The notes: a model not told the origin generated them from the sequence alone. 56,956 nt of DNA from Minisyncoccia bacterium (GCA_049287185.1 JBAQFI010000014.1:1-56956); one strand, 5' to 3'. Shown: positions 7,690 to 50,537, numbered from the stretch's first letter. Translations and numbers: made by a program.

Positions 7690-8547
7690 CTGGCACCTCG
7701 TGCAATAGTGAGTGCCACGTCCAGCATGTCTTATTTTAACCAGTTTACCACCACAAACTTTACAAGGGTCTTTTTCACGGCCATAAACATAGAGATGTGG
7801 AACAAAACCACCTTGGCTACCATCACTACGACGATAGTTTCTTGAAGAGGTTCCACCATGTTTTATAGAAAGTTTCAAAACACCGACTAACTTTTCATGA
7901 AGTTTTTTTACATCTTTATCGGTAAGTGATTTAACTTTTCTATCAGGCCTGAGACCGGCTAGGAAGCAGGATTCATCAGCGTAGATATTTCCGATGCCAG
8001 CAATCATAGTTTGATCTAGTAGAAGTTGTTTAATTGTTTTATTTGAGTGCTTCTTAAAAATATTAATCAAATAATCAACGGTAAAGTCTTTTGATAAAGG
8101 TTCAGGACCAGTTTCTTCAGTCATTTTAGCTAAGGCTTGTTTATCAACAAGTTTTGACCAGCCAAACTTTCGCATATCATTAAAATAAAGATGTGAGTTG
8201 TCAGTAAATTCAAAAATAATCCTAGTATGTTTGCCAGGAGCCTGAATATCTGAAGTAGGGTGGCCCCCAGAGATCATTTTTTTACCATTCTTCGGCACAT
8301 AAATTAATTGTCCAGTCATTTTTAGATGAAAAAGTAAAAAATTATCTTTCTTTAGATTCAAAATAATCATTTTCGCCCGACGATCGGCAGAAATTATAGT
8401 TTGACTTTGAAGTTTTTTTATAAAATCAGCAGGGGAAAGGGGAAGAACGGCTTTGTTATACAAAACTTCGACTTTTTTTATAGTGTGGCCAGATAATAGT
8501 TTATCTAGCTCACGGCGTAGGGTTTCAACCTCAGGTAATTCAGGCAT
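7684..8547 (-). CDS. mutM: formamidopyrimidine-DNA glycosylase
   Basis: N-terminal MPELPEVE, H2TH region, C-terminal zinc finger CxxC...CxxC. Confidence 0.9.
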   Translation of the reverse strand: MPELPEVETLRRELDKLLSGHTIKKVEVLYNKAVLPLSPADFIKKLQSQTIISADRRAKMIILNLKKDNFLLFHLKMTGQLIYVPKNGKKMISGGHPTSDIQAPGKHTRIIFEFTDNSHLYFNDMRKFGWSKLVDKQALAKMTEETGPEPLSKDFTVDYLINIFKKHSNKTIKQLLLDQTMIAGIGNIYADESCFLAGLRPDRKVKSLTDKDVKKLHEKLVGVLKLSIKHGGTSSRNYRRSDGSQGGFVPHLYVYGREKDPCKVCGGKLVKIRHAGRGTHYCTRCQI

Positions 8548-8641
8548 GTAATTAACTCAAAAATCAAAACTCAAAGTTCAAAACTAAGATGTTGTGATAG
8601 AAGAGATATTTGAATACTAGGATAAACTAGGACAAAAGAAA

Positions 8642-8672
8642 AGCCTGGCAGGTGCTTTGCACCTGCCAGGCT
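8642..8672 (-). terminator. terminator hairpin after the Mur ligase gene
   Basis: AGCCTGGCAGGTGC/GCACCTGCCAGGCT perfect stem. Confidence 0.55.
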
Positions 8673-8681
8673 AATCAATTT

Positions 8682-9944
8682 CTATTTTTTAAGTTTTCTT
8701 AATTCTTCTCTTGCCACTTCAGCATCATTCCAAGCCTCCTTTTTACCATTTGCTCTCATAATATAAGGATCTGTACCTTTGCCAGTAATTAGTACGGCAT
8801 CGCCCGGTTTGGCCTCTTTGAAGGCGGTAGCTATGGCCTGTCGGCGATCCATGATGATTTCTAAGGGTTTTTCGGTGATTTCTTTGGCCATATCTTCAAC
8901 AATTCCACGTGGATCATCATCATATGGGTCTTCATCAGTTAGAATAATATGTGAAGCATGTTTCTCAGCGATATTAGCCATTTCAATTCTTTTCCATTTA
9001 TCTCGGCCACCACCGGTGTTTCCAAGGACGGCAATAATGCGAGAAGATTGGAAAACCTCATAAAGTTTTTCTAGTGAATCTGGAGTATGAGCATAATCAA
9101 CAATAACAGTAAAATTTTGACCCTCATCGATTTTTTCTACGCGACCACGAATACCAGAGAATTTTTCCACCGCGCGTTTAATAATTTGATCAGAAACATT
9201 TTGACTTTTAGCAAAAGTAGCCGCTGCTAAAATATTATAAATGTTAAATAAACCAGAAAGTGGAGAAGTAATTTTTTGTCCGCCCCAAGTAAACTCACAA
9301 CCCTCTTTTTTAATTTCAAAAGGCTCAACATCCTTGATGGAATAGGGAAGTTTAGTTGGAACATTAATATTTAAAAATTTATTTCCTTCTTTATCATCAC
9401 TATTTGAAACAATTATTCGGTTTGGCTTCTTAGATTTTTCTAAAGCTTTGGCAATTTCCAATTTTGCAGCTAAATAATTTTCATAGGAACCATGAGATTC
9501 AATATGCTCAGGGGCTAAGTTGGTAAAAATTAGAGCATCCAAGTTTATAAACTTATGTCGATATTGAACAACTGCTTGAGAAGTGATTTCTAAAATGACA
9601 TATTCACATTTTGCGTTTACTGCCTGACGAAGAAACTTCTGCACAAAAAAGCGACCAGGTAAGGTCATTTTGTACATATTATTTTTTGAGTCATCACCAA
9701 TTTTGAAACGCAAAGTTCCAGCTAAAGCAGTTTTGAAACCAGCTTCTTCTAAAATAGCATTAATAATCTCGGCAGTTGAAGTCTTGCCCTTGGTACCAGT
9801 GATGGCAATAACCTTTATTTTTCGACTGGGGAAACGATAAATCAGGGCTGCTAGAAAGGCTAATTTCCAATGATATATCGGTTGAAGGGAGGAAAATATC
9901 TTGGTTGGTATAATTTTTTTTATTTGGCGCAAAATTTTATTCAT
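8682..9944 (-). CDS. Mur ligase family protein (MurE-like)
   Basis: ATP-binding motif ITGTKGKTST and DYAHTPDSL. Only 420 aa, and it lacks a long N-terminal domain. Confidence 0.7.
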   Translation of the reverse strand: MNKILRQIKKIIPTKIFSSLQPIYHWKLAFLAALIYRFPSRKIKVIAITGTKGKTSTAEIINAILEEAGFKTALAGTLRFKIGDDSKNNMYKMTLPGRFFVQKFLRQAVNAKCEYVILEITSQAVVQYRHKFINLDALIFTNLAPEHIESHGSYENYLAAKLEIAKALEKSKKPNRIIVSNSDDKEGNKFLNINVPTKLPYSIKDVEPFEIKKEGCEFTWGGQKITSPLSGLFNIYNILAAATFAKSQNVSDQIIKRAVEKFSGIRGRVEKIDEGQNFTVIVDYAHTPDSLEKLYEVFQSSRIIAVLGNTGGGRDKWKRIEMANIAEKHASHIILTDEDPYDDDPRGIVEDMAKEITEKPLEIIMDRRQAIATAFKEAKPGDAVLITGKGTDPYIMRANGKKEAWNDAEVAREELRKLKK

Positions 9945-10049: not shown

Positions 10050-10628
10050 TTATTTTCCTAATTTTTTTAATGCATAGCGGATTCTTTCCTTGGTATCTTT
10101 AATGTCTGTCGGAATACCTTTCAAAGCCTCTCTAACATCCTCGTGACTATAACCGATTGTCTTCAAAGCTTCAAGGACTTCTACTTCACCTTGGAGACTA
10201 GAATCAGATTCGTCAGTCGTGAGATGAATCTTGTCTTTCAGTTCCAAAACAATTTTTTCTGCTAGTTTTTTTCCTATGCCGGAAACTTTGGTTAAGTGAG
10301 AAGTATCTTCAGTGGCTATTGCCCTTCGTAAAATAGTAACTGGACTGACATTCATAACGCCGAGAGCACTTTTTGGTCCAATGCCAGAGATAGAAATCAA
10401 TTGCTCAAAGAAATCCAAATCATCTTTAGTTTCAAAACCATAAAGGTCTGAAGCATCTTCACGAATAACATGGTGAATCCAAACGGATAGGGAAGTTTGT
10501 TTTTTGTTGGCCTTACGACAGAGTTCGCCAGTGGAAAATACTTTATAGCCAATACCGTTATTCTCTAAAACAAAATAGCGATCACTAGTATCAATCACAG
10601 TTCCGATTAAATGCATTATCATATTCAT
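10050..10628 (-). CDS. ruvA: Holliday junction branch-migration protein RuvA
   Basis: MNMIMHLIGTVI... N-terminus, HhH motifs (GIGPKSA, GIGKKLAEKI). The start was moved to an internal Met because the 22 codon upstream extension of the ORF (to 10694) looks spurious. Confidence 0.85.
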   Translation of the reverse strand: MNMIMHLIGTVIDTSDRYFVLENNGIGYKVFSTGELCRKANKKQTSLSVWIHHVIREDASDLYGFETKDDLDFFEQLISISGIGPKSALGVMNVSPVTILRRAIATEDTSHLTKVSGIGKKLAEKIVLELKDKIHLTTDESDSSLQGEVEVLEALKTIGYSHEDVREALKGIPTDIKDTKERIRYALKKLGK

Positions 10629-10718
10629 ATTATAAAGGTCAAAACTTCTATCCGCAATGCTATGCCATAAGAAAAAGTCTGGTTTGCTAGGCAAACCAGA
10701 CTTTCATTAGTCCAAACT

Positions 10719-10955
10719 TTATTCTGCTTCACAGCCGTTGATAAATCCAGCTATAAACATAGCCTGGACAGGAATTTCCTTGGCGCTGATAGCTGATATT
10801 TCTGTGACCTTTATCACATCAGCGACCAGCTTTGCCTGTTCCTCGGTAATTCTTTTCCTAGGGTTAACCCCCTGAAGAACCCTGTTAATAAGACCTTTGT
10901 GTGCGGTATCCACTGATCCAGCCACATCAACCTTCAAAAAAGTTTCTACAACCAT
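10719..10955 (-). CDS. hypothetical small protein
   Basis: 78 aa ORF with a GGAG-like RBS upstream. No family is recognised. Confidence 0.4.
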   Translation of the reverse strand: MVVETFLKVDVAGSVDTAHKGLINRVLQGVNPRKRITEEQAKLVADVIKVTEISAISAKEIPVQAMFIAGFINGCEAE

Positions 10956-11145
10956 TTTAGTCTCCTTTTGTTTAAGTTGTCTATTTAAAAGTATACTCTA
11001 TATTTTACTATTTGTCAATAAGCGAAATAATCTAAAATTCAGGATATCTCTAATGGCTTGTCTTTTCGAGATTTTGTGCTAGTATGGTTTTACTATCAAT
11101 AAAAAATCCGTGTCAAAAGGTTTTTAAAAAGATAACAATTAACAA

Positions 11146-11409
11146 ATGCCAATAACATCATCAGCCAAAAAAGCTCTAAGAGCTTCAAAACACAAGAAAG
11201 TTTTCAACTTACGCCGTAAGAATGTCTCCAACGATGTGATTAAGGAATTGAGAACTTTGGTAGCCGACAAAAAAATAAAAGAAGCGAAAGCTCTTTTACC
11301 ACGTGCTTATCAAGTTTTGGATAAATCAGTTAAGACCAAATTAATCAAGAAAAATACTGCTTCTCGTTTAAAATCAAGATTGTCCGCACTGATTAAGAAA
11401 AATCAATAA
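11146..11409 (+). CDS. rpsT: 30S ribosomal protein S20
   Basis: Basic 87 aa protein with a MPITSSAKKALRASKHK... N-terminus typical of S20. Confidence 0.9.
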   Translation: MPITSSAKKALRASKHKKVFNLRRKNVSNDVIKELRTLVADKKIKEAKALLPRAYQVLDKSVKTKLIKKNTASRLKSRLSALIKKNQ

Positions 11410-11412
11410 AAG

Positions 11413-11440
11413 AAAAAACCGCCTGAGGGCGGTTTTTTTT
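11413..11440 (+). terminator. intrinsic terminator
   Basis: AAAAAACCGCCTGAGGGCGGTTTTTTTT. The same hairpin sequence recurs at 21744-21771. Confidence 0.8.
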
Positions 11441-11480
11441 GTAGAAAAGAAAACCCCGCACTTAAAGTTTGGGGTTTTGT

Positions 11481-11738
11481 CTACGCGTTTTGTTGTTGAA
11501 GAGTAAAAAAATCTTCCTGCGTAATTTCTTGATAGAGATAGCAACGATCATCTTCTTCTGGTCTACAACAGTCACAGTCCCAATCAGCTTCCCAAGAAAA
11601 ATACTTTCCTTCGGGAGTTAGAAAAACATGGGGTTTAGAGTGATTTACTCTCCTAATACATTCAGGAAGGTATCCGTCATGTCTGTCGCCGAGAATTTCT
11701 TCTCGTCTAGCAACAATAATTCCACAGCGTGTACGCAT
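11481..11738 (-). CDS. Cys-rich hypothetical protein
   Basis: Strong AAAGGAG RBS 5 nt before the ATG at 11738, which is the internal Met of ORF 11481-11753. Contains CDCC and other Cys residues. No family is recognised. Confidence 0.5.
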   Translation of the reverse strand: MRTRCGIIVARREEILGDRHDGYLPECIRRVNHSKPHVFLTPEGKYFSWEADWDCDCCRPEEDDRCYLYQEITQEDFFTLQQQNA

Positions 11739-11829
11739 AATTACTCCTTTCAAGTTTTAAACTATCTATTTAGAGAATATATTAAAAGACAGGGAATATC
11801 AATTAATTTGGAGTTAAGACAAAATAATT

Positions 11830-11985
11830 CACTTGGACCGCTTCGCTTATCTTCCCAGCGCTCGGTTTCGCCGTCGCTTCACCGAGCTGGGACGCGGTCT
11901 CGAATTTCTCGCTGGTACTCGAAATATACTCGACCGTTCGATTCCTAACTTTTGATATACTCATATCAAAAGTTAAGTGGGGGGA
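11830..11985 (-). repeat. tRNA-3'-end-linked structured element, type C body, matched to tRNA-Arg(GCG)
   Basis: On the minus strand: TCCCCCCACTT, a hairpin (AACTTTTGATAT/ATATCAAAAGTT) and AGGAATCGAAC. Joined together these are the reverse complement of the last roughly 22 nt of the tRNA at 20407-20478. The 47 nt core matches 4764-4810 with one mismatch. The element ends GGTCCAAGTG, echoing tRNA ...TTCCAAGTG. Confidence 0.8.
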
Positions 11986-12037
11986 CATTATAAAAATCGG
12001 CTTTTCTTAAAAGAAAGCCGATTTTTATAATGTCCCC
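11981..12037. terminator. 24 bp perfect palindrome (bidirectional terminator-like) containing a displaced tRNA 3'-end remnant
   Basis: GGGGACATTATAAAAATCGGCTTT ... AAAGCCGATTTTTATAATGTCCCC. The arm at 12031-12040 reads GTGGGGACA on the minus strand, resembling the tRNA-Arg(GCG) 3' end GTGGGGGGACA. Confidence 0.7.
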
Positions 12038-12180
12038 ACAACAAGAAATTATTATAACCATTTTGAGTGATAGAAATTATATAGAAAGCTTATATGAGAA
12101 AGTCAGATATATAAGAGAGATGAGTGTGAATTAAATTACTATCTCCACTTAGTATATTAAATTTCTTAAAAACATAAAAA

Positions 12181-14316
12181 TTACCATTTTATTTCGAGTT
12201 CCTTAAATGCATTTTTGATTAATAATCTCCCTTCTCTCTGATAGAAACTATATTTTATTGGGCCAGTGGCTCTTTTGGTCGATTTTGTAAAAGCGTGGGA
12301 CAATTCACTTTCAAGTCTTTTTTCGTGAATACTTTTAGTCATTTTGAATATTAACGGATATTTTCTTTCAAATCGGCTATTTTTACTAGATACTGATCCA
12401 CCAATATTTCCTAAAGTGTAATTACCGATTGTCACATCATGCTTAAATAATGATTTCAGTAACAGATCATTAAAGACGTCCATGTAATTTACCCATGCAG
12501 TAATATCAATACCTGCTTTTCTACAACAATTAAAAGCTTTCTTTCGAGCCTCTTCATAATCTGTCCCGAAGATACTTCGCCAATTAATATTTTTAATTTC
12601 ATTGTTCATCCATTTGTTAAAATAGATTTCTATACTACACCAGTTAGCACCAAAGGGTAGCCTTTCTATTAAACCAGACTCTTTGAGAATATTTGCCGCC
12701 CGCAAATTAATATTTTTTTTAATACCCATAATTGGTAACTCACGTTTAACCATGATTACAGCTGCAACGCAAGCGACATCGTTTGACTTATCTCTTATTT
12801 TTTCATTTATGATTTCAGTGAGTCTTTTTGGGCTCAAATTATCATTATCTAGAGCTTGAACTAAAGAAGATCTTACATACCATTCTTTCGGCCTGAGTGC
12901 AAAATCCATTTGCTTTGAAGTGTTGATTAGGTTTTCTCTTATAATGGGTTTCCCAATTGCTATGTGTAAAGCAACTTCAGACTCTAATACTCTTGGATGC
13001 CACTCTTTTTTTAATAAACGATTAAGGCGATTTTTTTGGTCATGTCTAATTCTTCCATCAAGTGTTTCAAAAAGTCCTGCCGTTATGGTTGTATAGACGG
13101 GTTGGCTGTTTATTTCCTTAATAATTAGATTCACGATTGTTTTCGGAAGAAACTTGTATCGCTGAAAATATTGAAAAACTGCTTCAAAATTAGCTGGGTA
13201 TTCCATAAAAATACGCCAGATACGGTAATTTATTTGAGAAGAGGGAATGATTTGACTAAGCGTGAATTTAAAAAGTGTCTGATTGGTTATTTTATATTCT
13301 TTTGTTAATGAAATTATTTTCTTTCGTAGTTTAGTTTGGTTGGTCACCCTCCATTCAGTGGGTGGATCTGTAGGTCTACTTATAGATTTAAGCTCATTCT
13401 CAATATCTTTCACTTTATGTATTTTGATTTTATTACTTTGTGGAAAAAGACCAATATTTTTACTTAGCCTATCAAAACGGACTAACATTTTACGTAATTC
13501 TTTTTCTGATTTTGCAAATAATCTTATATCATCAACATAACGCATATAGCGTATGTGTGGTCGGCTACCATAACCGACATCAAAATATTTTAATACGACT
13601 TCTGATAGAATTCCTGAACTTAATGGACCTTGAGGAATACCGTGATTATGATAGATTTGAGTTGATTCGTTTCCAGTCCACTTACTTAAACAGTTCGTTA
13701 GTAAATCAATGAATTCATTATCGCAATTTATTTCCTTTAGAAAATGACGTAATACTTTATGATCAATACTGTCGTAACAGGCGGTTAAATCAAAGCTAGC
13801 TGTATACACTAGTCCTTTTTTAAAAGATTCTCTCGCCATCTCATTAAACTGCTGATATCCATCAGACCATTTTCTATAAAACCAAACGCTACTTTTACCA
13901 GCATAAAGATTACCAAAATTTTTCACATAATAGTTAGATTTGATTTTTGGAAAAAGATGTTCGGCAATAACATTAGTCATTGCCTGATAAATAATCTGAT
14001 CTTCAATAGTAAGTAGTGTGTATGGACGAAGAACCCCCGATGGTTTAGGTATAAAAATTTTACATCCATGGCTTGGCTCGTAAATATTTTTCTGGATTTG
14101 TTCTGATAAATCCTTAATGATGTAATCTTCTATTAAAAGATAATTAGAGTAAAGATCACGAAAATACCCTTTATATCTCCTATCAGGGTTACTTTTAATC
14201 CAACGCCAAGCACGTTGGATATTTCTTCTATCAAGAACCTCGTTAATTGTTGAAGTATAATTTGGCATATATAATTGATAATATCCATTTAATACACCAT
14301 AATAAAAGGATATCAA
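12181..14316 (-). CDS. reverse transcriptase with a C-terminal extension of about 400 aa (Abi/UG-like, not a group II intron or retron type)
   Basis: RT motifs are readable: KPSGVLRPYT (1-2), FDLTACYDSIDH (3), GIPQGPLSSGILSEV (4), YMRYVDDIRLF (5) and GLFPQSNKIKI (6-7). The ORF start at 14316 is TTG, with an alternative ATG at 14268. Confidence 0.85.
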   Translation of the reverse strand: MISFYYGVLNGYYQLYMPNYTSTINEVLDRRNIQRAWRWIKSNPDRRYKGYFRDLYSNYLLIEDYIIKDLSEQIQKNIYEPSHGCKIFIPKPSGVLRPYTLLTIEDQIIYQAMTNVIAEHLFPKIKSNYYVKNFGNLYAGKSSVWFYRKWSDGYQQFNEMARESFKKGLVYTASFDLTACYDSIDHKVLRHFLKEINCDNEFIDLLTNCLSKWTGNESTQIYHNHGIPQGPLSSGILSEVVLKYFDVGYGSRPHIRYMRYVDDIRLFAKSEKELRKMLVRFDRLSKNIGLFPQSNKIKIHKVKDIENELKSISRPTDPPTEWRVTNQTKLRKKIISLTKEYKITNQTLFKFTLSQIIPSSQINYRIWRIFMEYPANFEAVFQYFQRYKFLPKTIVNLIIKEINSQPVYTTITAGLFETLDGRIRHDQKNRLNRLLKKEWHPRVLESEVALHIAIGKPIIRENLINTSKQMDFALRPKEWYVRSSLVQALDNDNLSPKRLTEIINEKIRDKSNDVACVAAVIMVKRELPIMGIKKNINLRAANILKESGLIERLPFGANWCSIEIYFNKWMNNEIKNINWRSIFGTDYEEARKKAFNCCRKAGIDITAWVNYMDVFNDLLLKSLFKHDVTIGNYTLGNIGGSVSSKNSRFERKYPLIFKMTKSIHEKRLESELSHAFTKSTKRATGPIKYSFYQREGRLLIKNAFKELEIKW

Positions 14317-14567
14317 CTATAATTCCAAGTTTACCTTTACCTAGAATTAAAGCAAATTATTGTTTTAGTCAGATTAAAAGTAGAGTAGAAAAAATCATGG
14401 AAAATCATGGATTTTATATCTATTCAAAAAGGCGGGAAAAGGTATGAAATTCTAACTTGCTACGTTATCCACCAGATAGCACATAAAGAACGTCAAATTA
14501 GGGCGTTTAGACGCTTAGAAACGATGTTAGTTACCTATTGCTGTTTAGCTTATTCAGTACTTTTAAT

Positions 14568-15194
14568 TTATTCCTTAGGTATCCAATTATAATCTTTATC
14601 TATCTCGCTTAACTGTAATGAAAATTTTTGAATTTCATTTAAAATACAAATCTTAATAAAATCTTCATAACCAGAACCTGAAAGACTACCTATATTTTGA
14701 AGTTCGCAAGCAACCTTTCTGTGTGTACTCCATGAATCCTTATATTTTTTAAGATTATCAATTATATAATCGTATTCCGCTGTGGGAGCAAAATAATCTA
14801 AATTTTCTCTCGTTATTTTCGTATTATTTAAATCCTTGATAAGTTTTTCAAATTGTTGATTTGAAGCTAATTCATTTTTATTAAATAAATTAGACAGACA
14901 TGTTTTATAATGATCTGGACAAATCTCATTGATTTCCTTCAAATACACATCACTGCTTATCAAAAGATTTTCATATACATCTTTTTGTGTTTCTGTGAGT
15001 GTATACATTTTACTCCATTCAAATCCTGCATTTTGGCATTCCTCAATAGTAATATTCTTCTGTAAAGATTTTTGACTATTGAAATAAATAAACAGGGCAA
15101 CTATTACTAGTAAAAATATTATGATGCAAATGGCACCTTTTTTAAAGAGATTTTCCTTCACAAAAGAGAGAGGGTTTTTAATTTTTTTTATCAT
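14568..15194 (-). CDS. N-terminally anchored hypothetical protein with conserved Cys pairs (possibly DUF1311/LprI-like)
   Basis: One TM helix (AICIIIFLLVIVALFIYF) followed by a helical Cys-containing ectodomain. The family assignment is weak. Confidence 0.45.
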   Translation of the reverse strand: MIKKIKNPLSFVKENLFKKGAICIIIFLLVIVALFIYFNSQKSLQKNITIEECQNAGFEWSKMYTLTETQKDVYENLLISSDVYLKEINEICPDHYKTCLSNLFNKNELASNQQFEKLIKDLNNTKITRENLDYFAPTAEYDYIIDNLKKYKDSWSTHRKVACELQNIGSLSGSGYEDFIKICILNEIQKFSLQLSEIDKDYNWIPKE

Positions 15195-15221
15195 ATTTTT
15201 TATTATACTTTTTTAGGTGGT

Positions 15222-15446
15222 CTATATAAGTCTATCGTTAGCATTTTTATCAGCATTATCAACAAAATAATCCGCCGTTAAACTAACATTCTTTGGCATA
15301 TCCCTGTATATATCTTCCGCGAGCCTTTTTGTCTCAAGTAATATGCCATTGTGCTGTCTAATCATTTCAAGCGCTATATAACTCTTCAGTTTGAAGTAGA
15401 AAACGATTATTAAAACTATTATTGTAATGAGGATGGTGTATATCAT
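15222..15446 (-). CDS. small single-pass membrane protein
   Basis: 74 aa with N-terminal TM helix MIYTILITIIVLIIVFYF. Lies 27 nt from the next gene in the same orientation. Confidence 0.45.
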   Translation of the reverse strand: MIYTILITIIVLIIVFYFKLKSYIALEMIRQHNGILLETKRLAEDIYRDMPKNVSLTADYFVDNADKNANDRLI

Positions 15447-15472
15447 AATGTTTTTTATTAAATTATTAAAAC

Positions 15473-16081
15473 CTATTTACGTTTTACCTTACCTAATGAC
15501 CAAATAATAAAATCTAATGCTTTAATATCAGATATTTTTGATTCACTTACATTAAACCTTTTTCTAAACTTTAAAATTACTTTTTTAACCTTACTATCCT
15601 TTAATAAATTTGAGTACATCTGCTTTAAATATTCATATATTTCTATGCAGGATTTGACCTTTTCTCTCTTAGTTTCGCCAGTTCTTTTTTTGTGAATTAC
15701 ATCTGAGACTTCTGCATCAAAAATAGGATTATTATTATCCAGTGTGTGTAATAGTTTAGTGGCGAAGCTAAATTGAATTGTATTTTGACCTTTCCGGTTG
15801 GGAAATTTATATAACTCTAATAAAATAGACCCTAAATCGTTTTTCTTTTTAGTTAATAATTTAAAGTAAAAATCTTTTATATCGTCACCTAACCCAGCGT
15901 TATCTAATTTATAATAGGACCTGAAAACAAATTGGAATAATGTATTGTTTTTAATGTTATCTTTTTCGTGTTCATTTTTTAAAAATAAATAAATGCAAAT
16001 ACTCTCACAATTTATATTGGATAATATTTTGTCCTGATTGCCTAGGATCTCCTTTATTATTCTTTCTAATTCTTGAAGCAT
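15473..16081 (-). CDS. hypothetical protein (first gene of the minus-strand island cassette)
   Basis: 202 aa soluble Lys-rich ORF. No family is recognised. Confidence 0.45.
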   Translation of the reverse strand: MLQELERIIKEILGNQDKILSNINCESICIYLFLKNEHEKDNIKNNTLFQFVFRSYYKLDNAGLGDDIKDFYFKLLTKKKNDLGSILLELYKFPNRKGQNTIQFSFATKLLHTLDNNNPIFDAEVSDVIHKKRTGETKREKVKSCIEIYEYLKQMYSNLLKDSKVKKVILKFRKRFNVSESKISDIKALDFIIWSLGKVKRK

Positions 16082-16326
16082 TTGGTCGTATCTAAACGAC
16101 CTAGTAGTAAGGCACGAAAAATCCTCACACTAGGAAGGTTTTTAAGCCTATGTATCAGTTTCCCAATACAACGCACGATACGCCCTAATATGAGGGTTTT
16201 CTGTATCGTGCGATTATTGACCGTGCCACCAGCAAAAGCTAATGGGTTAGGTCCTACGGAATATTCAGTTGTCCATTAATATTAACATTTACAGGGCTTT
16301 CTGCAATAAATAAGTTACCAACTGCA

Positions 16327-17232
16327 TTGAGTTGTATGAGAATTAGTGAAATACTATATATTATGGTTAAAATTAGCAAGAAACAAAAAGGTGAGATAAA
16401 ACCGTATTTGGCGAATTTGGGTCTTATATTGGCGGTATACAATAAACTACTACAAACCCATAAAAATATAATTAATGATTTCGATAAAAAATACAGATTT
16501 TTGAGCTCTAAAAAAATGAGGAAGGAGAAACCTTATATATGGACACCAGATGGAAATATTATTATAGACACTAAATTTTTAAATAAACTCGACGACAAAA
16601 GTAGAAAAGACCTACTATTTATTAAAGATGAAATGACTAAAGACTTTAAAGAGAAAATATTACCTTTAGTTAATTTACCACTACATTTTCTTCCTTATTA
16701 TTGGAACTATATATTGTACAGAGATATAGACGCGCCAAAGAAAAACTTTTCTATAAATTTTCATCCAATTGATCCTAAATATGATTTAATAAAAAAAATG
16801 GACAGAGGCACACAGTATATTACTCTTAATATATATAAACCTCTCTCTACTAATGAAAAGAAAAAAGCACTTAGTCTAGTTGAGAGTATGGGAAAAAAGG
16901 CTTTTCCAAAATATATAAAAGATAAACTTAAGTTTGTTAATGATATAACTCGTGATCTTAGATTATATAATGATGCATCTGAAAGAAAACGTTCAAAAAC
17001 AACGATAGAATATACAGACTACTTAAAATTTTTAAAAAAAGAGGTGGAAAAAGGACGTTGCTCTGAAACTTCATTTAAACATACAGTATCTTTAAATCCC
17101 CATGATATTGATATAAAAAAAGAAAAAAGTATAACAAGTAAAGAGATTGGCAAGAAATTTAATTTAAAGGAAGCAAATGTAAAAAAGATTATAGAAAGAT
17201 ATAACAAAAAAATGTCACTTTATATCAACTAG
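16327..17232 (+). CDS. hypothetical Lys-rich protein (island)
   Basis: 301 aa ORF divergent from the RT cassette. No family is recognised, and the true start may be the internal Met of MVKISKKQKGE. Confidence 0.45.
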   Translation: MSCMRISEILYIMVKISKKQKGEIKPYLANLGLILAVYNKLLQTHKNIINDFDKKYRFLSSKKMRKEKPYIWTPDGNIIIDTKFLNKLDDKSRKDLLFIKDEMTKDFKEKILPLVNLPLHFLPYYWNYILYRDIDAPKKNFSINFHPIDPKYDLIKKMDRGTQYITLNIYKPLSTNEKKKALSLVESMGKKAFPKYIKDKLKFVNDITRDLRLYNDASERKRSKTTIEYTDYLKFLKKEVEKGRCSETSFKHTVSLNPHDIDIKKEKSITSKEIGKKFNLKEANVKKIIERYNKKMSLYIN

Positions 17233-17506
17233 TACCGTGACACTTTTTTAACAAGAGGATGTCACGATGATTTAAATACTAGTTTTATATTGAGCCCAGA
17301 GTCAAAGTGATTCTGGGTGATGCTTTTTAACAAAGCCCCAACATCACCTTTGGGGCTTTATTATGGATTCAAAAGAAGAAATAAAAAAAGAAGAAGAGAT
17401 AATAAGCGATGCGGCCGAATCGCTCGCTTCAATTTTTGTTTCTTTATTTGACCAACAATTTGAGAGAAAAAACAAAGACTCCCAAATCACTAATTAATTT
17501 ACAAAT

Positions 17507-17719
17507 ATGTTAAAAAAAAATATAACTAAGAATGGGTGTTTATCAGATACTGAGTGGATGCTTTGGTTCGATATGGATGATGCTGCGAGAGAAATATTAC
17601 GGGGTAGAACGATAGATTCTAAGAGAGTTCATGAGGATTCAAATTTTACTATTTTGTATGATTGTAAAACCAGCGATTTTACCCTCACATATACTCTTAA
17701 AGGGAAACACGCTAATTAG
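17507..17719 (+). CDS. hypothetical small protein (island)
   Basis: 70 aa ORF. No family is recognised. Confidence 0.35.
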   Translation: MLKKNITKNGCLSDTEWMLWFDMDDAAREILRGRTIDSKRVHEDSNFTILYDCKTSDFTLTYTLKGKHAN

Positions 17720-17787
17720 CAGGTTAATTTAGTTTTTAGTTTTTTAAACCCTGGGGTATTAGAAACTGAAAACTAATAAAAAAGTAT

Positions 17788-18861
17788 ATGGAAATTGCAA
17801 AAATAATCGAAGGAATGACAAAAGACCTAGAAAGTAAGACTAACTCGCTTGTCTCTGTTGAACAGATATTGAAGCACGACTTTGGTCCTGAATTATGGAC
17901 TGTGGCTGAATTAATACCCCAAGAATCAATTACTGCCATTACGGGAGCACCAAAATCATTCAAAACATGGCTTGTGCTAGATATTGCCAAATGTATCGCT
18001 AAGGGCACGGATTTCTTAGGAAAATTTAAGACTAGTCAGGGTCGAGTACTTATTATCGATAGAGATAATAATTTACGCCACATTCAAAAACGGCTCAAAA
18101 TGCTCGGATTTGAAAAGGAAGAAATTCTATACCATGTAGGAGAGGGTGAGTTTCAGATTGATAAGGATAAAGACTTCCAGGAGTTATTAAAGACAGTAAG
18201 TGAACAAAAAATTAGTTTGGTGATATTAGATTCTCTCGTGCGGATTCATTCAGGAGATGAGAATGAGTCACGATACATTAACAAGCTAATGACTGCCTTT
18301 AGAAAAGTAACAACTTTGGGTGCCACAATTATTTTTCTACATCATAACCGTAAGGAAAGTCTAAATACACAAAGCACAACCAATAGCGTACGTGGTTCGT
18401 CAGATATTTTTGCCGGTCTTGATTGTCTTCTACAAGTAACCAAGCCAGAAAAGGATTCTCTGTACATCACCCAATCGAAACTAAGAACCGGAGAAGAAAT
18501 GGAACCTTTTAAGGTTCAGATAAATAAAACTGAAGAGTCTATGGAGCTTGTATATGCTGGTAAAAGTGATTTTGGAAGTAAGGACACCTATGAAGTAAAG
18601 ATTATTATTGCTGAGCTATTAGAAGACAAAAAAGAAATGACACGTGAAGAAATAATTAAAGAATTTTCTGAACAATACAAGCCAGTAATAATTAATCTTT
18701 CACTAAAAGAACTTGAATTGTCAGAGAAAATTATTAAAAAGATAGGACCTCATAATAAACATTCTTATGTATTAAACGCAAATTCTACACTAAAAAGTGA
18801 AAAGATTGAAGTTAAAGTGCATAACCCTGTTGATATGAATTTATTAAAAAAGGATAATTAA
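17788..18861 (+). CDS. RecA-superfamily ATPase (RepA / AAA_25-like) typical of integrative and plasmid replication modules
   Basis: Walker A ITGAPKSFKTW, Walker B LVILDSL, sensor region FLHHNRK. Confidence 0.7.
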   Translation: MEIAKIIEGMTKDLESKTNSLVSVEQILKHDFGPELWTVAELIPQESITAITGAPKSFKTWLVLDIAKCIAKGTDFLGKFKTSQGRVLIIDRDNNLRHIQKRLKMLGFEKEEILYHVGEGEFQIDKDKDFQELLKTVSEQKISLVILDSLVRIHSGDENESRYINKLMTAFRKVTTLGATIIFLHHNRKESLNTQSTTNSVRGSSDIFAGLDCLLQVTKPEKDSLYITQSKLRTGEEMEPFKVQINKTEESMELVYAGKSDFGSKDTYEVKIIIAELLEDKKEMTREEIIKEFSEQYKPVIINLSLKELELSEKIIKKIGPHNKHSYVLNANSTLKSEKIEVKVHNPVDMNLLKKDN

Positions 18862-18870
18862 AATTAAATT

Positions 18871-20511
18871 ATGAATCAAAATAAAGTTGCAGTTATATAT
18901 TGTAGAGTTTCCACGGACGAACAAGCCAAGGAAGGTTTGTCTATTGAATCGCAGGAACTTACTTGTCGAAGAAAAGCTGAAGAGGAGGGATATTCCGTTA
19001 TTGAAGTAATAAAAGATGAAGGTAAGAGTGGAAAAAATATTAATCGAGAGGGAATGAAAAATATTTTAAGGTTAGTGAATGAGAAAAAAATAAATGCTAT
19101 CTATTTGGTAAATACCGACAGGCTTTCCAGAAATGTAGCCGACCATATATATCTTACTGACCTCTTTAGAAAGAATAAAGTGTTGTTAAGATCAATAAAT
19201 CAACCAACATTAGATAGTTCAGCCACTTCCATAACTATGGATTTAATGATGGCAACAATGAACCAGTTTCAAAGATTGAATACAGCAGAAAAAGTTAAAT
19301 CGACAATGCATGAAAAAGCTAAAGCTGGTTATTACCCCAGTAAGGCTCCTGTCGGCTACAAGAATGTCCAAGACTTAAATAAGTCGGAAAGATTTGCTAG
19401 AAAAACAATTATTATTGATGAAAAAGCAGCGGTCTTTGTTAGGGAAATTTTTAGACTGTATGCCACTGGCGAACACAATGCGGTTGAAGTCAGCGATATT
19501 GTCTACGATAAAGGATTTAGGAGTAGAGGTGGAAAGAAAGTATCGGACTCCAAAATCTATATGATGTTAAAAAATCGATTCTATATTGGAGAGATAAACT
19601 GGGGAGAAATACATATTCCTAAAGCTAAGCATGAGCCCTTAATTGAAAGAGTGGTATTTGATCAAGTTCAAAGTGTTTTGAATTCCCACAATAAGCATTC
19701 TTGTCGGCGGCGAAAGTACAAATGGTTGCTTAGTGGATTCCTTAGGTGCCATAAACATAATTCTAGATATACGGCTGAATGGCATTTAAACAAAAAGATT
19801 GCTTACTATCACTGTACGGTTAATGGTTGCGGTAAATTCTCCGAACAGGTAAAACTTGAAAATGCTATCGCTGAAAAGTTTAAGGACCTTGAGTTCAGCC
19901 CAGATTTTATTGAATTAGTTATTAGTAAGGCAAAAAACATCTTCTATGAACGAAGAGAGGTGTATGAAAGCAAGAGACAGGGTTTGATTAATCAAAAAAG
20001 TGCCTTCGAAGCCAAATTAAAGGTAGCGGAAACCAAATTACTATCAGGCACCTTAAAAGACGAGGACTTCAAAAGGATCCGAGAGGAAATTAAAAAAGAA
20101 ATTGACCTAATTGATAATAGGATAGTTGAAGTTCAGAAGGGTAAGGAGATAAATGTTGATATGACAAGGGAAATAATTGGGCTAACTAAGAATATTTTTG
20201 AAACATATCAAAAGGCTTTACCTGAGCTAAAAAGGTTATTTCTGGGTTTCTTTTGGGAAAGGTTTGAAGTATCTGAAGGTATTATAATAAATTCCATTCC
20301 CTCTATATTATTTAGCCAATTAATCAAACTTGAGAAGGCATATCAAAAAAGCCAAAATACTAATAAACCCAGTGATTTTGCTAATGTTATAAGTTCTACT
20401 GACTTGTCCCCCCACTTGGAATCGAACCAAGATTTTGAGTTCCGCAAACTCATGTCCTATCCATTGAACGATGAGGAGATGAACGGGAAGACTATAGCAC
20501 ACTTTTTTTAA
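18871..20511 (+). CDS. large serine recombinase (integrase)
   Basis: Resolvase catalytic motif VIYCRVSTDEQ, recombinase domain, Cys-rich zinc ribbon (CHKHN...YYHCTVNGC), coiled-coil region. The last roughly 35 codons run antisense through the tRNA at 20407-20478. Confidence 0.9.
   Translation: MNQNKVAVIYCRVSTDEQAKEGLSIESQELTCRRKAEEEGYSVIEVIKDEGKSGKNINREGMKNILRLVNEKKINAIYLVNTDRLSRNVADHIYLTDLFRKNKVLLRSINQPTLDSSATSITMDLMMATMNQFQRLNTAEKVKSTMHEKAKAGYYPSKAPVGYKNVQDLNKSERFARKTIIIDEKAAVFVREIFRLYATGEHNAVEVSDIVYDKGFRSRGGKKVSDSKIYMMLKNRFYIGEINWGEIHIPKAKHEPLIERVVFDQVQSVLNSHNKHSCRRRKYKWLLSGFLRCHKHNSRYTAEWHLNKKIAYYHCTVNGCGKFSEQVKLENAIAEKFKDLEFSPDFIELVISKAKNIFYERREVYESKRQGLINQKSAFEAKLKVAETKLLSGTLKDEDFKRIREEIKKEIDLIDNRIVEVQKGKEINVDMTREIIGLTKNIFETYQKALPELKRLFLGFFWERFEVSEGIIINSIPSILFSQLIKLEKAYQKSQNTNKPSDFANVISSTDLSPHLESNQDFEFRKLMSYPLNDEEMNGKTIAHFF
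20407..20478 (-). tRNA. tRNA-Arg (anticodon GCG), atypical C1-G72 acceptor
   Basis: Manual cloverleaf: CTCCTCA acceptor paired with TGGGGGG (two G-U pairs), D arm GTTC/GGAC, anticodon stem TGAGT/ACTCA with loop TTGCGGA, T arm CTTGGTTCGATTCCAAG, discriminator A. No CCA is encoded. Confidence 0.65.
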
Positions 20512-20978
20512 AAACCCAATATCTCGGCCAGTTTTACCCAGACAGATTCCTCCATTTTATCCTCTTTTAATTTCTTAAGTAATGAAAGGTGAATTAACTC
20601 TGGATCTTGTCCGTCAGCTGGCACAATAATCAAGGGTGATAACAACTTTTGGGATCTAATCAAAATTTTGTGTTTCTGGTTTTCAGTATGATCAATTTCT
20701 ACAAAAAAAGCTTCTAAATTGTCGTATGGTAAAAGATGTTCTCCTAAAATGATACCGCGGTTAGTAATTTCACAATTAATCATTCGAGGTTTAACATTTC
20801 CTCTAAAAATTAAAATTAAACCAGCTAGAAAAATAAAAACAGCAAAAAGATAATTATCAATAAGTATCGCAAAGATAACAATAAAGAGGGTAATGAGCCC
20901 GACTGCCCAAAACCAATCCACACTTCTTATTTTATGTTCATGTTCTAATGCTTGCCATTTCAAATGTGAAACATTCAT
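20508..20978 (-). CDS. conserved hypothetical membrane protein
   Basis: 156 aa with two TM helices near the N-terminus followed by a soluble domain. Confidence 0.5.
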   Translation of the reverse strand: MNVSHLKWQALEHEHKIRSVDWFWAVGLITLFIVIFAILIDNYLFAVFIFLAGLILIFRGNVKPRMINCEITNRGIILGEHLLPYDNLEAFFVEIDHTENQKHKILIRSQKLLSPLIIVPADGQDPELIHLSLLKKLKEDKMEESVWVKLAEILGF

Positions 20979-21052
20979 GCCTAAAATTATAGCATACTTT
21001 TTTTACTTGAAAAAATATCAAAATTATGCGACTATTGAAAGCGCTAGAATAT

Positions 21053-21140
21053 GGAGAGGTGGCAGAGTGGTCTAATGCACCGGTCTTGAAAACCGGAACC
21101 TGGGCAACCGGGTCGCGAGTTCGAATCTCGCCTTCTCCGC
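21053..21140 (+). tRNA. tRNA-Ser (anticodon UGA)
   Basis: GGAGAGG acceptor, anticodon stem-loop CCGGT CTTGAAA ACCGG, long variable arm, T arm GCGAGTTCGAATCTCGC. No CCA is encoded. Confidence 0.9.
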
Positions 21141-21324
21141 AACGATAAAATAACGCGAAAGCGTTATTTTTGTTGTGGAGAAGGAGTAATGTGTTTGAAC
21201 ACATTACGTCGAGATTCGAAAGGAATTTTGATATTTTGTTAGTAAACAAAATCAAAATTCCGGGGTCGAGGAAAAAATATGTGACGACATATTTTTGAGG
21301 TGACCGAACAGCCTTCTCCGCAAC
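21141..21324 (+). repeat. tRNA-3'-end-linked structured element (Ser copy, type A-like)
   Basis: The order is terminator hairpin, TGTGGAGAAGG (complement of the acceptor 3' strand), hairpin AGTAATGTGT/ACACATTACGT, then CGAGATTCGAA (21210-21220), the exact complement of T-loop plus stem. The body carries CGGGGTCGAG and GTGACC. A 14 nt perfect direct repeat GCCTTCTCCGCAAC lies at 21130-21143 and 21311-21324. Confidence 0.85.
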
Positions 21325-21325
21325 A

Positions 21326-21357
21326 ATACCCAACAACTGTAAGTTGCTGGGTATTTT
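21326..21357 (+). terminator. terminator hairpin after the Ser element
   Basis: ACCCAACA/TGCTGGGT stem followed by ATTTT. Confidence 0.45.
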
Positions 21358-21381
21358 ACATTTAGAAAGATATTACAAAAT

Positions 21382-21672
21382 TTATTTCAGGAAAAAAGCA
21401 ATTAAAATGATAATTATTTCAATTAGTGCAGACCAAAATGAAATCATATTTGATTTCCTTGCTTTTGCTGGTAATCTATTCTTCCATCCATAATACAGAA
21501 TTGCTCCACCTAATATTGGATTAAAAAGACAGATTATCCACACATATATTTTTTCGACTTTAGTAAGGGGTTCTTGAGATACTTGACCACTAGGAACTTT
21601 TGATAATTTGTAATACATTAAAATAAAACAAATAATTGTAGAAACCGTCATTATTTCTCCTGGTCCAATCAT
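21382..21672 (-). CDS. small membrane protein
   Basis: 96 aa with three hydrophobic helices. Confidence 0.45.
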   Translation of the reverse strand: MIGPGEIMTVSTIICFILMYYKLSKVPSGQVSQEPLTKVEKIYVWIICLFNPILGGAILYYGWKNRLPAKARKSNMISFWSALIEIIIILIAFFLK

Positions 21673-21743
21673 TTGGAAATTATATCAATATTATATTTAT
21701 AAGTTAAGATTACTCCAACTTCATCCCATGTCATTCGCACAAT

Positions 21744-21771
21744 AAAAAAACCGCCTGAGGGCGGTTTTTTT
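21744..21771. terminator. intrinsic terminator (same hairpin as 11413-11440)
   Basis: AAAAAAACCGCCTGAGGGCGGTTTTTTT. Confidence 0.75.
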
Positions 21772-21779
21772 ATTGTTTA

Positions 21780-22058
21780 TTATTTCTTCTCTTCCGTCTC
21801 ACTCACACAAACACACTTGGTATCACAAACACAAACTTCATCATCACCCTTATCTAATAAGTAGTAATAAATTAGTTCTAAAATACCGAAAGTATTAATA
21901 ACGAGAAGAATAACAAACCAAATTCTACTTTCATTGTGAGAAGATTTCCAAAGAGCGAGTCCTTTCCAAGTTAATGACCAGATTGTTAAAGCAATGATAA
22001 TAACTATCATCAAAGGACTCATTTCTCCAGGTCTAAACATATAATCAGCTAGTGGCAT
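21780..22058 (-). CDS. DUF5652-like small membrane protein with a Cys-rich tail
   Basis: Two TM helices (LMIVIIIALTIWSL, WFVILLVINTFGILELIYYYLL). The C-terminus reads CVCDTKCVCV. Confidence 0.55.
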   Translation of the reverse strand: MPLADYMFRPGEMSPLMIVIIIALTIWSLTWKGLALWKSSHNESRIWFVILLVINTFGILELIYYYLLDKGDDEVCVCDTKCVCVSETEEKK

Positions 22059-50399: not shown

Positions 50400-50433
50400 T
50401 TTAAAAACCAATCCGCCAGATTGGTTTTTCTTT

Positions 50434-50488
50434 TCTGTCATTCTCGCCGGAGTTTATCCTCGACCTGATCGGGGATGGGAATGACAGA
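50434..50488. repeat. short diverged palindromic repeat related to family B
   Basis: CTGTCATTCTCGCC...GGGGATGGGAATGACAG. Confidence 0.6.
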
Positions 50489-50537
50489 ATAAAAAAGGAA
50501 GCTAGTTTCATAATTTAATATTTGCTATGATATAAAA

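Follow-up and report, generated by a model that had tools for sequence, protein, structure and literature searches.

A UG19-large reverse transcriptase, probably a stand-alone enzyme, carried as cargo beside a tRNA-Arg gene in a Minisyncoccia bacterium

The UG19 reverse transcriptases (RTs) have been placed in Class 1 of the UG/Abi RTs, in which the RT is fused to alpha-helical repeats (Mestre et al. 2022, PMC9226505). In UG19-large proteins, an additional C-terminal domain is fused to the RT; its function is unknown, and it has very distant homology to HEPN domains. In UG19-small, the same domain is encoded as its own gene. A role for UG19 in defense was predicted from individual loci and was not tested (PMC9226505). 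The Class 1 systems that have been studied to date make DNA without a nucleic-acid template (PMC13174585). For example, DRT4 makes random single-stranded DNA (ssDNA) with no template (PMC12783706), and AbiK, Abi-P2, and AbiA carry out template-independent and possibly protein-primed DNA synthesis (PMC11077055). In AbiA, a HEPN domain mediates dimerization, while the Rx6H motif is dispensable for defense and no RNase activity was found (PMC11077055). Here we describe a UG19-large RT that is encoded in a 56,956-nt stretch of DNA from a Minisyncoccia bacterium (GCA_049287185.1, JBAQFI010000014.1:1-56956); we call this whole stretch the window. An earlier note, made from the sequence alone, had described the RT as unclassified and had proposed that it forms a defense module with three small upstream genes.

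Among the PADLOC profiles, RT_UG19 is the best match, and it aligns with the RT nearly end to end: residues 24-711, counted from the TTG at the start of the open reading frame (ORF), match profile positions 3-561 of 562 (E = 2e-165, 550 bits). The second-best profile is RT_UG21 (E = 1.7e-55). Pfam's RVT_1 also matches. All three traits of UG19-large are present: RT_UG19 is the best profile and matches over the full length, there is an alphaRep region, and the extra C-terminal domain is fused to the RT instead of being encoded separately. Judged by its sequence, the RT is clearly an intact UG19-large enzyme, which puts it in a known but untested group of predicted anti-phage RTs. "Unclassified" was incorrect, as the group had already been described (PMC9226505). 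We think it probable that the RT is an intact stand-alone enzyme of UG19-large and Class 1, that it is cargo of an element next to a tRNA-Arg gene, and that the small genes beside it are not its partners. The family membership, the intact active site, and the three-part architecture were all computed here.

The ORF lies at 12181-14316 on the minus strand, and it encodes 711 amino acids (aa) if counted from the TTG, as the earlier note had it. The ORF is correct, but because close homologs begin at ATG 14268 (MPNYTS... versus MPTRTP... in P0004), this ATG is most likely the start, which would give a protein of 695 aa. The gene and its parts, numbered from the ATG, are as follows.

12181-14268, minus strand: UG19-large RT gene, most likely 695 aa from the ATG (RT_UG19 profile and Pfam RVT_1; start from the N-termini of homologs)
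13384-14268, minus strand: RT core, fingers and palm, residues 1-295 (AlphaFold2 model with pLDDT 90.5; Foldseek matches to group II intron RT cores)
12679-13338, minus strand: alpha-helical repeats, residues 311-530, the "alphaRep" element of Class 1 UG/Abi RTs (DSSP of the AlphaFold2 model; Foldseek)
12184-12636, minus strand: apparently UG19-specific C-terminal helical domain, residues 545-695 (separate AlphaFold2 model; invariant H648, R651, and H658)

The active site is intact. Motif A (FDLTACYDSID, at 13762-13794) includes the catalytic D160, and the YVDD box is at residues 244-247 (13528-13539). Both D160 and the YVDD box (with D246-D247) are invariant across 118 relatives. More broadly, the window RT keeps every residue that is invariant in these 118 sequences, including D160, D246-D247, R651, and H658. 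(R651 and H658 are the ends of the string RLESELSH, at 12295-12318.) The relatives are numerous: we found over 1100 full-length clusters at E < 1e-10, mostly of 680-700 aa and 44-69% identical over their whole length. They come from Patescibacteria, Acidobacteriota, Planctomycetota, Verrucomicrobiota, Proteobacteria, Firmicutes, and other groups.

We built an AlphaFold2 model of the full RT from 118 sequences. The model (pLDDT 90.5, pTM 0.79) is divided into the RT core (1-295), a disordered linker (296-307), a series of helices (311-530), and a separate C-terminal domain (545-695). In the helical-repeat region, DSSP assigns about 15 consecutive helices to the model. When we compared the full model to the PDB with Foldseek, group II intron RT cores matched at E of about 1e-9, and Abi-P2 (7r08), DRT4 (9vdo), and UG15 (9l9s) gave alignments of about 500-550 columns (TMq 0.37-0.40). 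The similarity across the RT and the helical domain also extended to AbiK, AbiA, DRT9, and DRT6. For a predicted structure, this is the picture that would be expected of Class 1, and together with the RT_UG19 profile it upholds the earlier suggestion of a UG/Abi-type, defense-associated RT with a long helical C-terminal extension. A profile search of the PDB sequences matched the RT core alone.

DRT4/UG15 and Abi-P2 (9VDO, 9L9S, 7R08) are the best structural matches over the RT and the helical repeats, and like UG19 they are single-gene systems. However, they are without the extra C-terminal domain of UG19, and the sequence identity is just 11-16%. AbiA from Lactococcus (8OZ7, PMC11077055) has a similar order of an RT-like polymerase, a helical domain, and a C-terminal helical domain with Rx6H, and the full model matches its fold at E of about 1e-7. 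On the other hand, AbiA is not among the top 25 PADLOC matches of the window RT, and the C-terminal domains superpose non-significantly (E = 7.9).

The window RT is not a group II intron, retron, or diversity-generating retroelement (DGR) RT, so these exclusions by the earlier note hold. The group II maturase model TIGR04416 reached 93.7 of the 300 bits that its cut-off demands, with an alignment limited to the RT core. The retron model NF038233 gave 39 bits, versus a cut-off of 235, and the models in NCBIfam for characterized DRTs were far under their cut-offs. In 10500-22000, Rfam gave no match at E ≤ 1 to a group II intron RNA or to any other family associated with RTs. Because 10500-21500 contains no direct repeat of more than 30 nt, there is no pair of template and variable repeats there; we did not find an Avd-like protein either.

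Modeled on its own with AlphaFold2, the C-terminal domain is an all-helical bundle (pLDDT 89.9, pTM 0.85). A profile search of 1.84 billion representative proteins found the domain in 284 of them. In all 148 of the listed matches that we examined, it was at the C-terminal end. Some of those 148 proteins were RTs of about 690 aa; the others were shorter and mostly collinear with the C-terminal part of the RT. Because the search finds the domain only in UG19-type RTs or their fragments, it is, as far as these sequences indicate, specific to UG19.

The earlier note had pointed to a loose Rx4-6H pattern, as in HEPN domains. The Rx6H motif (R651-H658) is real: R651 and H658 are invariant in the 118 sequences, and so is H648. 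The HEPN label is plausible but unproven. It is possible, though we consider it rather unlikely, that the domain is a catalytic HEPN RNase, or in other words an abortive-infection toxin that is restrained by the activity of the RT until a phage infects. The invariant residues and the all-helical bundle could fit such an enzyme, as could the very distant HEPN homology that was reported for this group (PMC9226505), and HEPN-containing Csx1-Crn2 and AbiA are among the weak fold matches. However, those two matches are not significant (E = 6.8 and 7.9), and no comparison of the domain to the PDB was significant (the best E was 2.1). Also, no HEPN family in Pfam matched any of 12 UG19 members, even at E ≤ 5, and there was no other Pfam match to the domain. 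Finally, the closest characterized analog is AbiA, where Rx6H is dispensable and no RNase activity was found (PMC11077055).

To see which genes accompany UG19 RTs, we gathered 160 RT loci, 159 of them distinct, from collections of genomes and metagenomes, as well as six loci (five distinct) for the closest relatives of the window RT. Overall, the window was compared with 168 other distinct UG19 loci. The only recurrent neighbors of the RT are restriction-modification (R-M) genes, namely type I systems (HsdR/HsdM/HsdS) and fused enzymes of the MmeI/Eco57I type. Of the 91 loci with 3 kb or more of upstream sequence, 32 had R-M neighbors, and many UG19 RTs begin 0-50 nt past a type I hsdS or an MmeI-type gene. 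One locus (L178) additionally has GmrSD. Most relatives are in ordinary chromosomal settings, across many phyla. These R-M and defense-island neighbors support the view that UG19 is a stand-alone defense gene that slots into defense islands.

In some loci, the RT lies 0-50 nt after hsdS or a fused methylase/specificity gene and on the same strand (L019, L021, L024-L026, L035, L050, and L055, and likewise L104, L121, L124, L132, L148, L175, and L178), as if it were within the R-M operon.

The flanks of the RT are often short. In L174, the next gene starts 15 nt past the RT, and several relatives have just 15-40 nt on either side. UG19 is therefore without a conserved adjacent non-coding RNA (ncRNA) of the kind that is known from DRT2, DRT3, DRT9, and DRT10, where a fixed and conserved ncRNA lies by the RT. 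The RT's independence from neighboring genes and from an adjacent ncRNA, and the defense-island context of its relatives, are results of these comparisons.

In the window, the RT is preceded by a non-coding gap and three small genes.

14269-14567, minus strand: non-coding gap upstream of the RT, 299 nt with the ATG start (251 nt with the TTG)
14568-15194, minus strand: cargo gene for a 208-aa, N-terminally anchored, Cys-containing ORFan (no homolog)
15222-15446, minus strand: cargo gene for a 74-aa protein with one N-terminal hydrophobic helix (ORF; no family match)
15473-16081, minus strand: gene for a 202-aa soluble protein, the first gene after the LOOT RNA described below (Patescibacteria family; weak similarity to DUF6308)

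Spacers of 26 and 27 nt separate the small genes from one another. These spacers, the four ORFs, the YVDD box, the RLESELSH string, and a two-copy repeat in the gap are all located where the earlier note had placed them. What did not stand is the four-gene module. A tblastn search with the three small proteins found nothing in the 160 scanned loci, nor in L174-L176, and the gene tables of L177-L179 list other neighbors beside the RT. Since none of the three genes recurs near the RT in the 168 other distinct loci, the cassette is not a conserved unit: the small genes are not partners of the RT, and their arrangement is an accident of how the cargo is packed. (Related elements carry other genes after the 202-aa gene.) The earlier note had itself named such a lack of co-occurrence as grounds for rejecting the module.

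The 208-aa protein has no homolog among 5.8 billion clusters, and its matches to LprI and to UmoC-like proteins are both sub-threshold. The 74-aa protein has no family match and is absent from all of the other RT and LOOT loci that we compared. PADLOC gave no SLATT or other match for any of the three. The 202-aa protein has 187 homologs, all of about 200 aa, and every member whose source is named is from Patescibacteria. We examined ten contexts for this family: six have neither LOOT nor RT, and four have LOOT immediately upstream. In four of the six without LOOT or RT, which are long contigs (L161, L162, L163, and L166), the homolog is packed inside R-M clusters, and the 202-aa family may itself be associated with defense.

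The earlier note had also suggested that the gap upstream of the RT might hold an ncRNA (14317-14567), and we rejected this. The gap folds no better than shuffled sequence (z-score of -1.59), it is not conserved upstream of the RT in close relatives, and in several relatives the RT begins 30-40 nt after the preceding gene. The repeat in the gap (two copies of AAAATCATGG, at 14391-14410) has no statistical weight, as it is just two copies of a 10-mer in AT-rich DNA. Sites that resemble promoters are not more common in the gap than in shuffled sequence. The gap probably holds only the RT's own promoter or untranslated region.

An RNA that was absent from the earlier note heads the operon of the 202-aa, 74-aa, 208-aa, and RT genes.

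16135-16253, minus strand: LOOT RNA (Rfam RF03000), 74.9 bits versus a gathering score of 46.4, with the full model matched
16115-16134, minus strand: conserved 3' extension of LOOT, CCTAGTGTGAGGATTTTTCG, present in 9 of 9 aligned copies

LOOT is an orphan motif that was derived from metagenomes by Weinberg et al. 2017 and is listed in PMC7779021. We found no published function or genomic context for it in the literature. The window copy is full-length and scores above the gathering threshold. The 202-aa gene follows it after 53 nt, and a gene for a 301-aa protein is divergent from it. All of the helices are supported by covariation across nine copies: 92.4% of cells were paired, versus 30-39% for controls with slid partners, and 31 of the 40 pairs were compensatory. 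The 3' extension, which is outside the Rfam model, consists of a short G+C-rich segment followed by a U-tract, and it could be an attenuator or the 3' end of a small RNA. A simple intrinsic terminator is doubtful here, as the single-sequence and alignment folds disagree about the hairpin. In at least 8 of the 9 aligned copies, the 3' end of LOOT is about 40-60 nt before a start codon. The gene that follows varies in identity and is often a small membrane protein.

We searched for LOOT in the RT loci with both our own covariance model and Rfam's. Only 2 of the 168 other distinct UG19 loci have it. In L174, whose RT is 66% identical to the window's, LOOT is 0.9 kb upstream of the RT, with one unrelated gene between them, for a 251-aa multi-pass membrane protein. 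In L178/L179 (RT 60% identical), it is 0.6 kb downstream of the RT, with two genes between, and it heads an operon that leads to AAA_25 and recombinase genes. In the window, it is 1.8 kb upstream, with three genes between. No LOOT was found in the flanks (2-7 kb on each side) of RTs that are 69%, 59%, and 54% identical.

LOOT is not limited to UG19 loci. In all, sixteen loci besides the window, representing 13 distinct copies, have LOOT in serine-recombinase phages and integrative elements. Some of these (L170-L172 and L173) were picked via the 202-aa protein and have LOOT placed as in the window. L170 shares with the window the recombinase (80% identity), the AAA_25 protein (54%), and a 70-aa protein (56%), and L173 shares the 301-aa protein (78%). 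The genes past the 202-aa homolog in L170 and L173 differ from the window's, although neither contig is long enough downstream to exclude an RT. Another eight copies were found in viral contigs by the RNA pattern alone. None of the eight has a UG19 RT. Five of them are near a large serine recombinase, which in three cases is directly divergent from LOOT. Six of the eight contigs have terminase-like genes, and several also have methylase or ParB-like genes. Because these sixteen loci put LOOT in such elements and upstream of variable genes, we assign LOOT to a family of temperate phages and integrative elements from Patescibacteria that encode a serine recombinase. There it heads a variable cargo operon, and it shares a vehicle with this sub-clade of the RT rather than being the RT's partner.

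A few other observations concern LOOT. It heads variable operons in the window and in L170, L173, L174, L178, L183, L188, L192, L209, and L211-L214. In two of these loci, both of them phage contigs (L188 at 2333-3731 and L212 at 8093-9505), a DGR converges on the LOOT-led operon, whose genes may be the targets of the DGR. Each DGR has an RT of about 350 aa and a bAvd-type gene; in contrast to these true DGR RTs, no such neighbor was found for the window RT. Our first DNA pattern for LOOT gave three chance matches in the viral collection and no true LOOT. We also considered whether the genes leftward of LOOT, for proteins of 301, 253, and 217 aa, might be one family, but they are unrelated by BLASTP.

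Could LOOT, the membrane proteins, and the RT nevertheless form one defense system within a sub-clade from Patescibacteria, as in DRT10, with LOOT as the template, scaffold, or sensor and the membrane proteins as effectors? If so, LOOT would have a function for the first time, and an RNA partner would be new to the single-RT systems of Class 1. In the window, L174 (66%), and L178/L179 (60%), LOOT and the RT share a strand and are less than 2 kb apart. Two of the three proteins between LOOT and the RT in the window have a transmembrane helix, and the order in L174, of LOOT, the 251-aa multi-pass membrane protein, and the RT, superficially resembles the ncRNA-SLATT-RT layout of DRT10 (UG17, PMC12632851). 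But DRT10, the latest of these systems to be named, has a Class 2 RT and a fixed adjacent ncRNA, while the window RT is in Class 1, and the Class 1 enzymes studied so far work without an RNA template. The position of LOOT relative to the RT is not fixed (1.8 kb upstream across three genes, 0.9 kb upstream across one, or 0.6 kb downstream across two), and the proteins that lie between are unrelated to one another. Neither the three window proteins nor the membrane protein of L174 has a SLATT or other PADLOC match. The remaining 166 distinct UG19 loci have no LOOT, even where the RT is 69%, 59%, or 54% identical, and none of the eight copies that were found by pattern has a UG19 RT. We consider a LOOT-coupled system to be very unlikely.

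The best explanation for the stand-alone RT that we favor, and for the three small genes, is that they are variable cargo. Their carrier would be an integrative element, about 8.4 kb long (roughly 11989-20405), in a Patescibacteria host.

16327-17232, plus strand: gene for a 301-aa protein, in a backbone module (16327-20511) that is divergent from the cargo operon
17507-17719, plus strand: gene for a 70-aa protein of the backbone module
17788-18861, plus strand: replication-type AAA_25 ATPase (Pfam AAA_25; primase/helicase families of PHROG)
18871-20511, plus strand: large serine recombinase (Pfam Resolvase, Recombinase, and Zn_ribbon_recom)
20406-20478, minus strand: tRNA-Arg(GCG) at the recombinase end of the island (ARAGORN, Rfam)
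11914-12040, plus strand: candidate for the other end of the island, downstream of the RT (degraded 3' half of tRNA-Arg, palindrome, and hairpin)

The GC content of the element is 0.313, versus about 0.36 in the flanks. This low GC content, the recombinase, the ATPase, and the adjoining tRNA-Arg all agree with the earlier placement of the RT on a mobile island. Housekeeping genes lie in the flanks (a Mur ligase, ruvA, and rpsT); the surrounding DNA is chromosomal, and the element is a small insertion in it. We found no relatives of the 301-aa protein or the recombinase in the viral collection. Compared with UG19-large as it was described (PMC9226505), the window RT has the same end-to-end profile, the same three-part layout, a single gene as the unit, and defense neighborhoods for its family. 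Nothing essential differs. Its setting, behind LOOT on a serine-recombinase element from Patescibacteria, is absent from the 2022 description.

The region downstream of the RT is probably the other end of the island, although its geometry is unlike a simple att duplication. It contains a degraded 3' half of a tRNA-Arg (11914-11986), interrupted by a perfect palindrome of 29 nt (11946-11974); a hairpin of 27 bp comes next (11978-12040). The degraded tRNA has strings of 10 and 13 nt that are identical to the 3' end of the tRNA-Arg, and it is inverted relative to the intact gene. The region is very strongly structured (folding z-score of -8.3). ARAGORN does not find a complete tRNA here, even with the palindrome removed. 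A match to the Clostridiales-1 RNA at 11907-12046 is sub-threshold (32 versus 48 bits) and probably reflects the two long hairpins.

At the recombinase end, the recombinase ORF has no stop codon until the whole tRNA-Arg has been read through in antisense, and its last 35 or so residues may be host-derived and created by integration. Between rpsT and the other end of the island, there is an ORF for a 90-aa Cys-rich protein with a CDCC motif (11481-11753, minus strand), which has no match in the PHROG families. Farther away, at 44000-51000, the GC content is 0.42-0.47, versus about 0.36 elsewhere in the window, and the skew changes sharply. Either an rRNA operon or a second segment of foreign origin might account for this.

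It is highly improbable that the RT has no role in defense and instead serves the replication, priming, or maintenance of an element or phage: its element does have a replication-type AAA_25 ATPase and a recombinase, two close relatives (L175 and L178) are also near a large serine recombinase, and some UG groups, such as UG4 and UG27, show no enrichment for defense (PMC9226505), but most relatives are not on such elements, R-M genes and GmrSD dominate among their recurring neighbors and the RT frequently lies 0-50 nt behind hsdS, defense was predicted for UG19 from its loci (PMC9226505), and L170 and L173 keep the backbone with other genes after LOOT and the 202-aa gene (on contigs that are too short to exclude an RT).

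If UG19 works as a defense system, its mechanism can be proposed by analogy with AbiK, Abi-P2, AbiA, DRT4/UG15, and DRT3b. The RT would need no RNA template and would make protein-primed or untemplated ssDNA. Upon infection by a phage, this product, or its loss, would block replication of the phage. The helical-repeat region might cradle the DNA product. The C-terminal domain, with its Rx6H motif, might act as an oligomerization or regulatory module, like the HEPN domain of AbiA, or else as an RNase effector. AbiA's template-independent, protein-primed synthesis and its dimerization via HEPN would apply to UG19 by analogy only.

Several points weigh against a stand-alone defense enzyme of this kind. 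Patescibacteria do not grow by themselves in culture, which hides the native phage targets. We found no experimental test of any UG19 member in the literature, and both the defense role and the untemplated synthesis are extrapolations, the latter from other Class 1 systems. Neither Pfam nor Foldseek could demonstrate that the C-terminal domain is a HEPN domain. Finally, LOOT lies on the same strand and within 2 kb in 3 of the 7 closest RT relatives whose context is visible (counting the window). We attribute this to the shared vehicle, but a functional link within the sub-clade is not strictly excluded.

Overall, our main result is corrective: the RT is of a type that was already catalogued, and there is no new four-gene system. 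UG19 is nevertheless a large family, spread across many phyla, with a confident structural model, a specific C-terminal domain, and adjacency to R-M genes, which makes it a reasonable candidate for experiments. The locus also shows that Patescibacteria carry defense genes on small integrative elements with serine recombinases. The most interesting by-product is a genomic context for the orphan LOOT RNA, which renders the function of LOOT testable.

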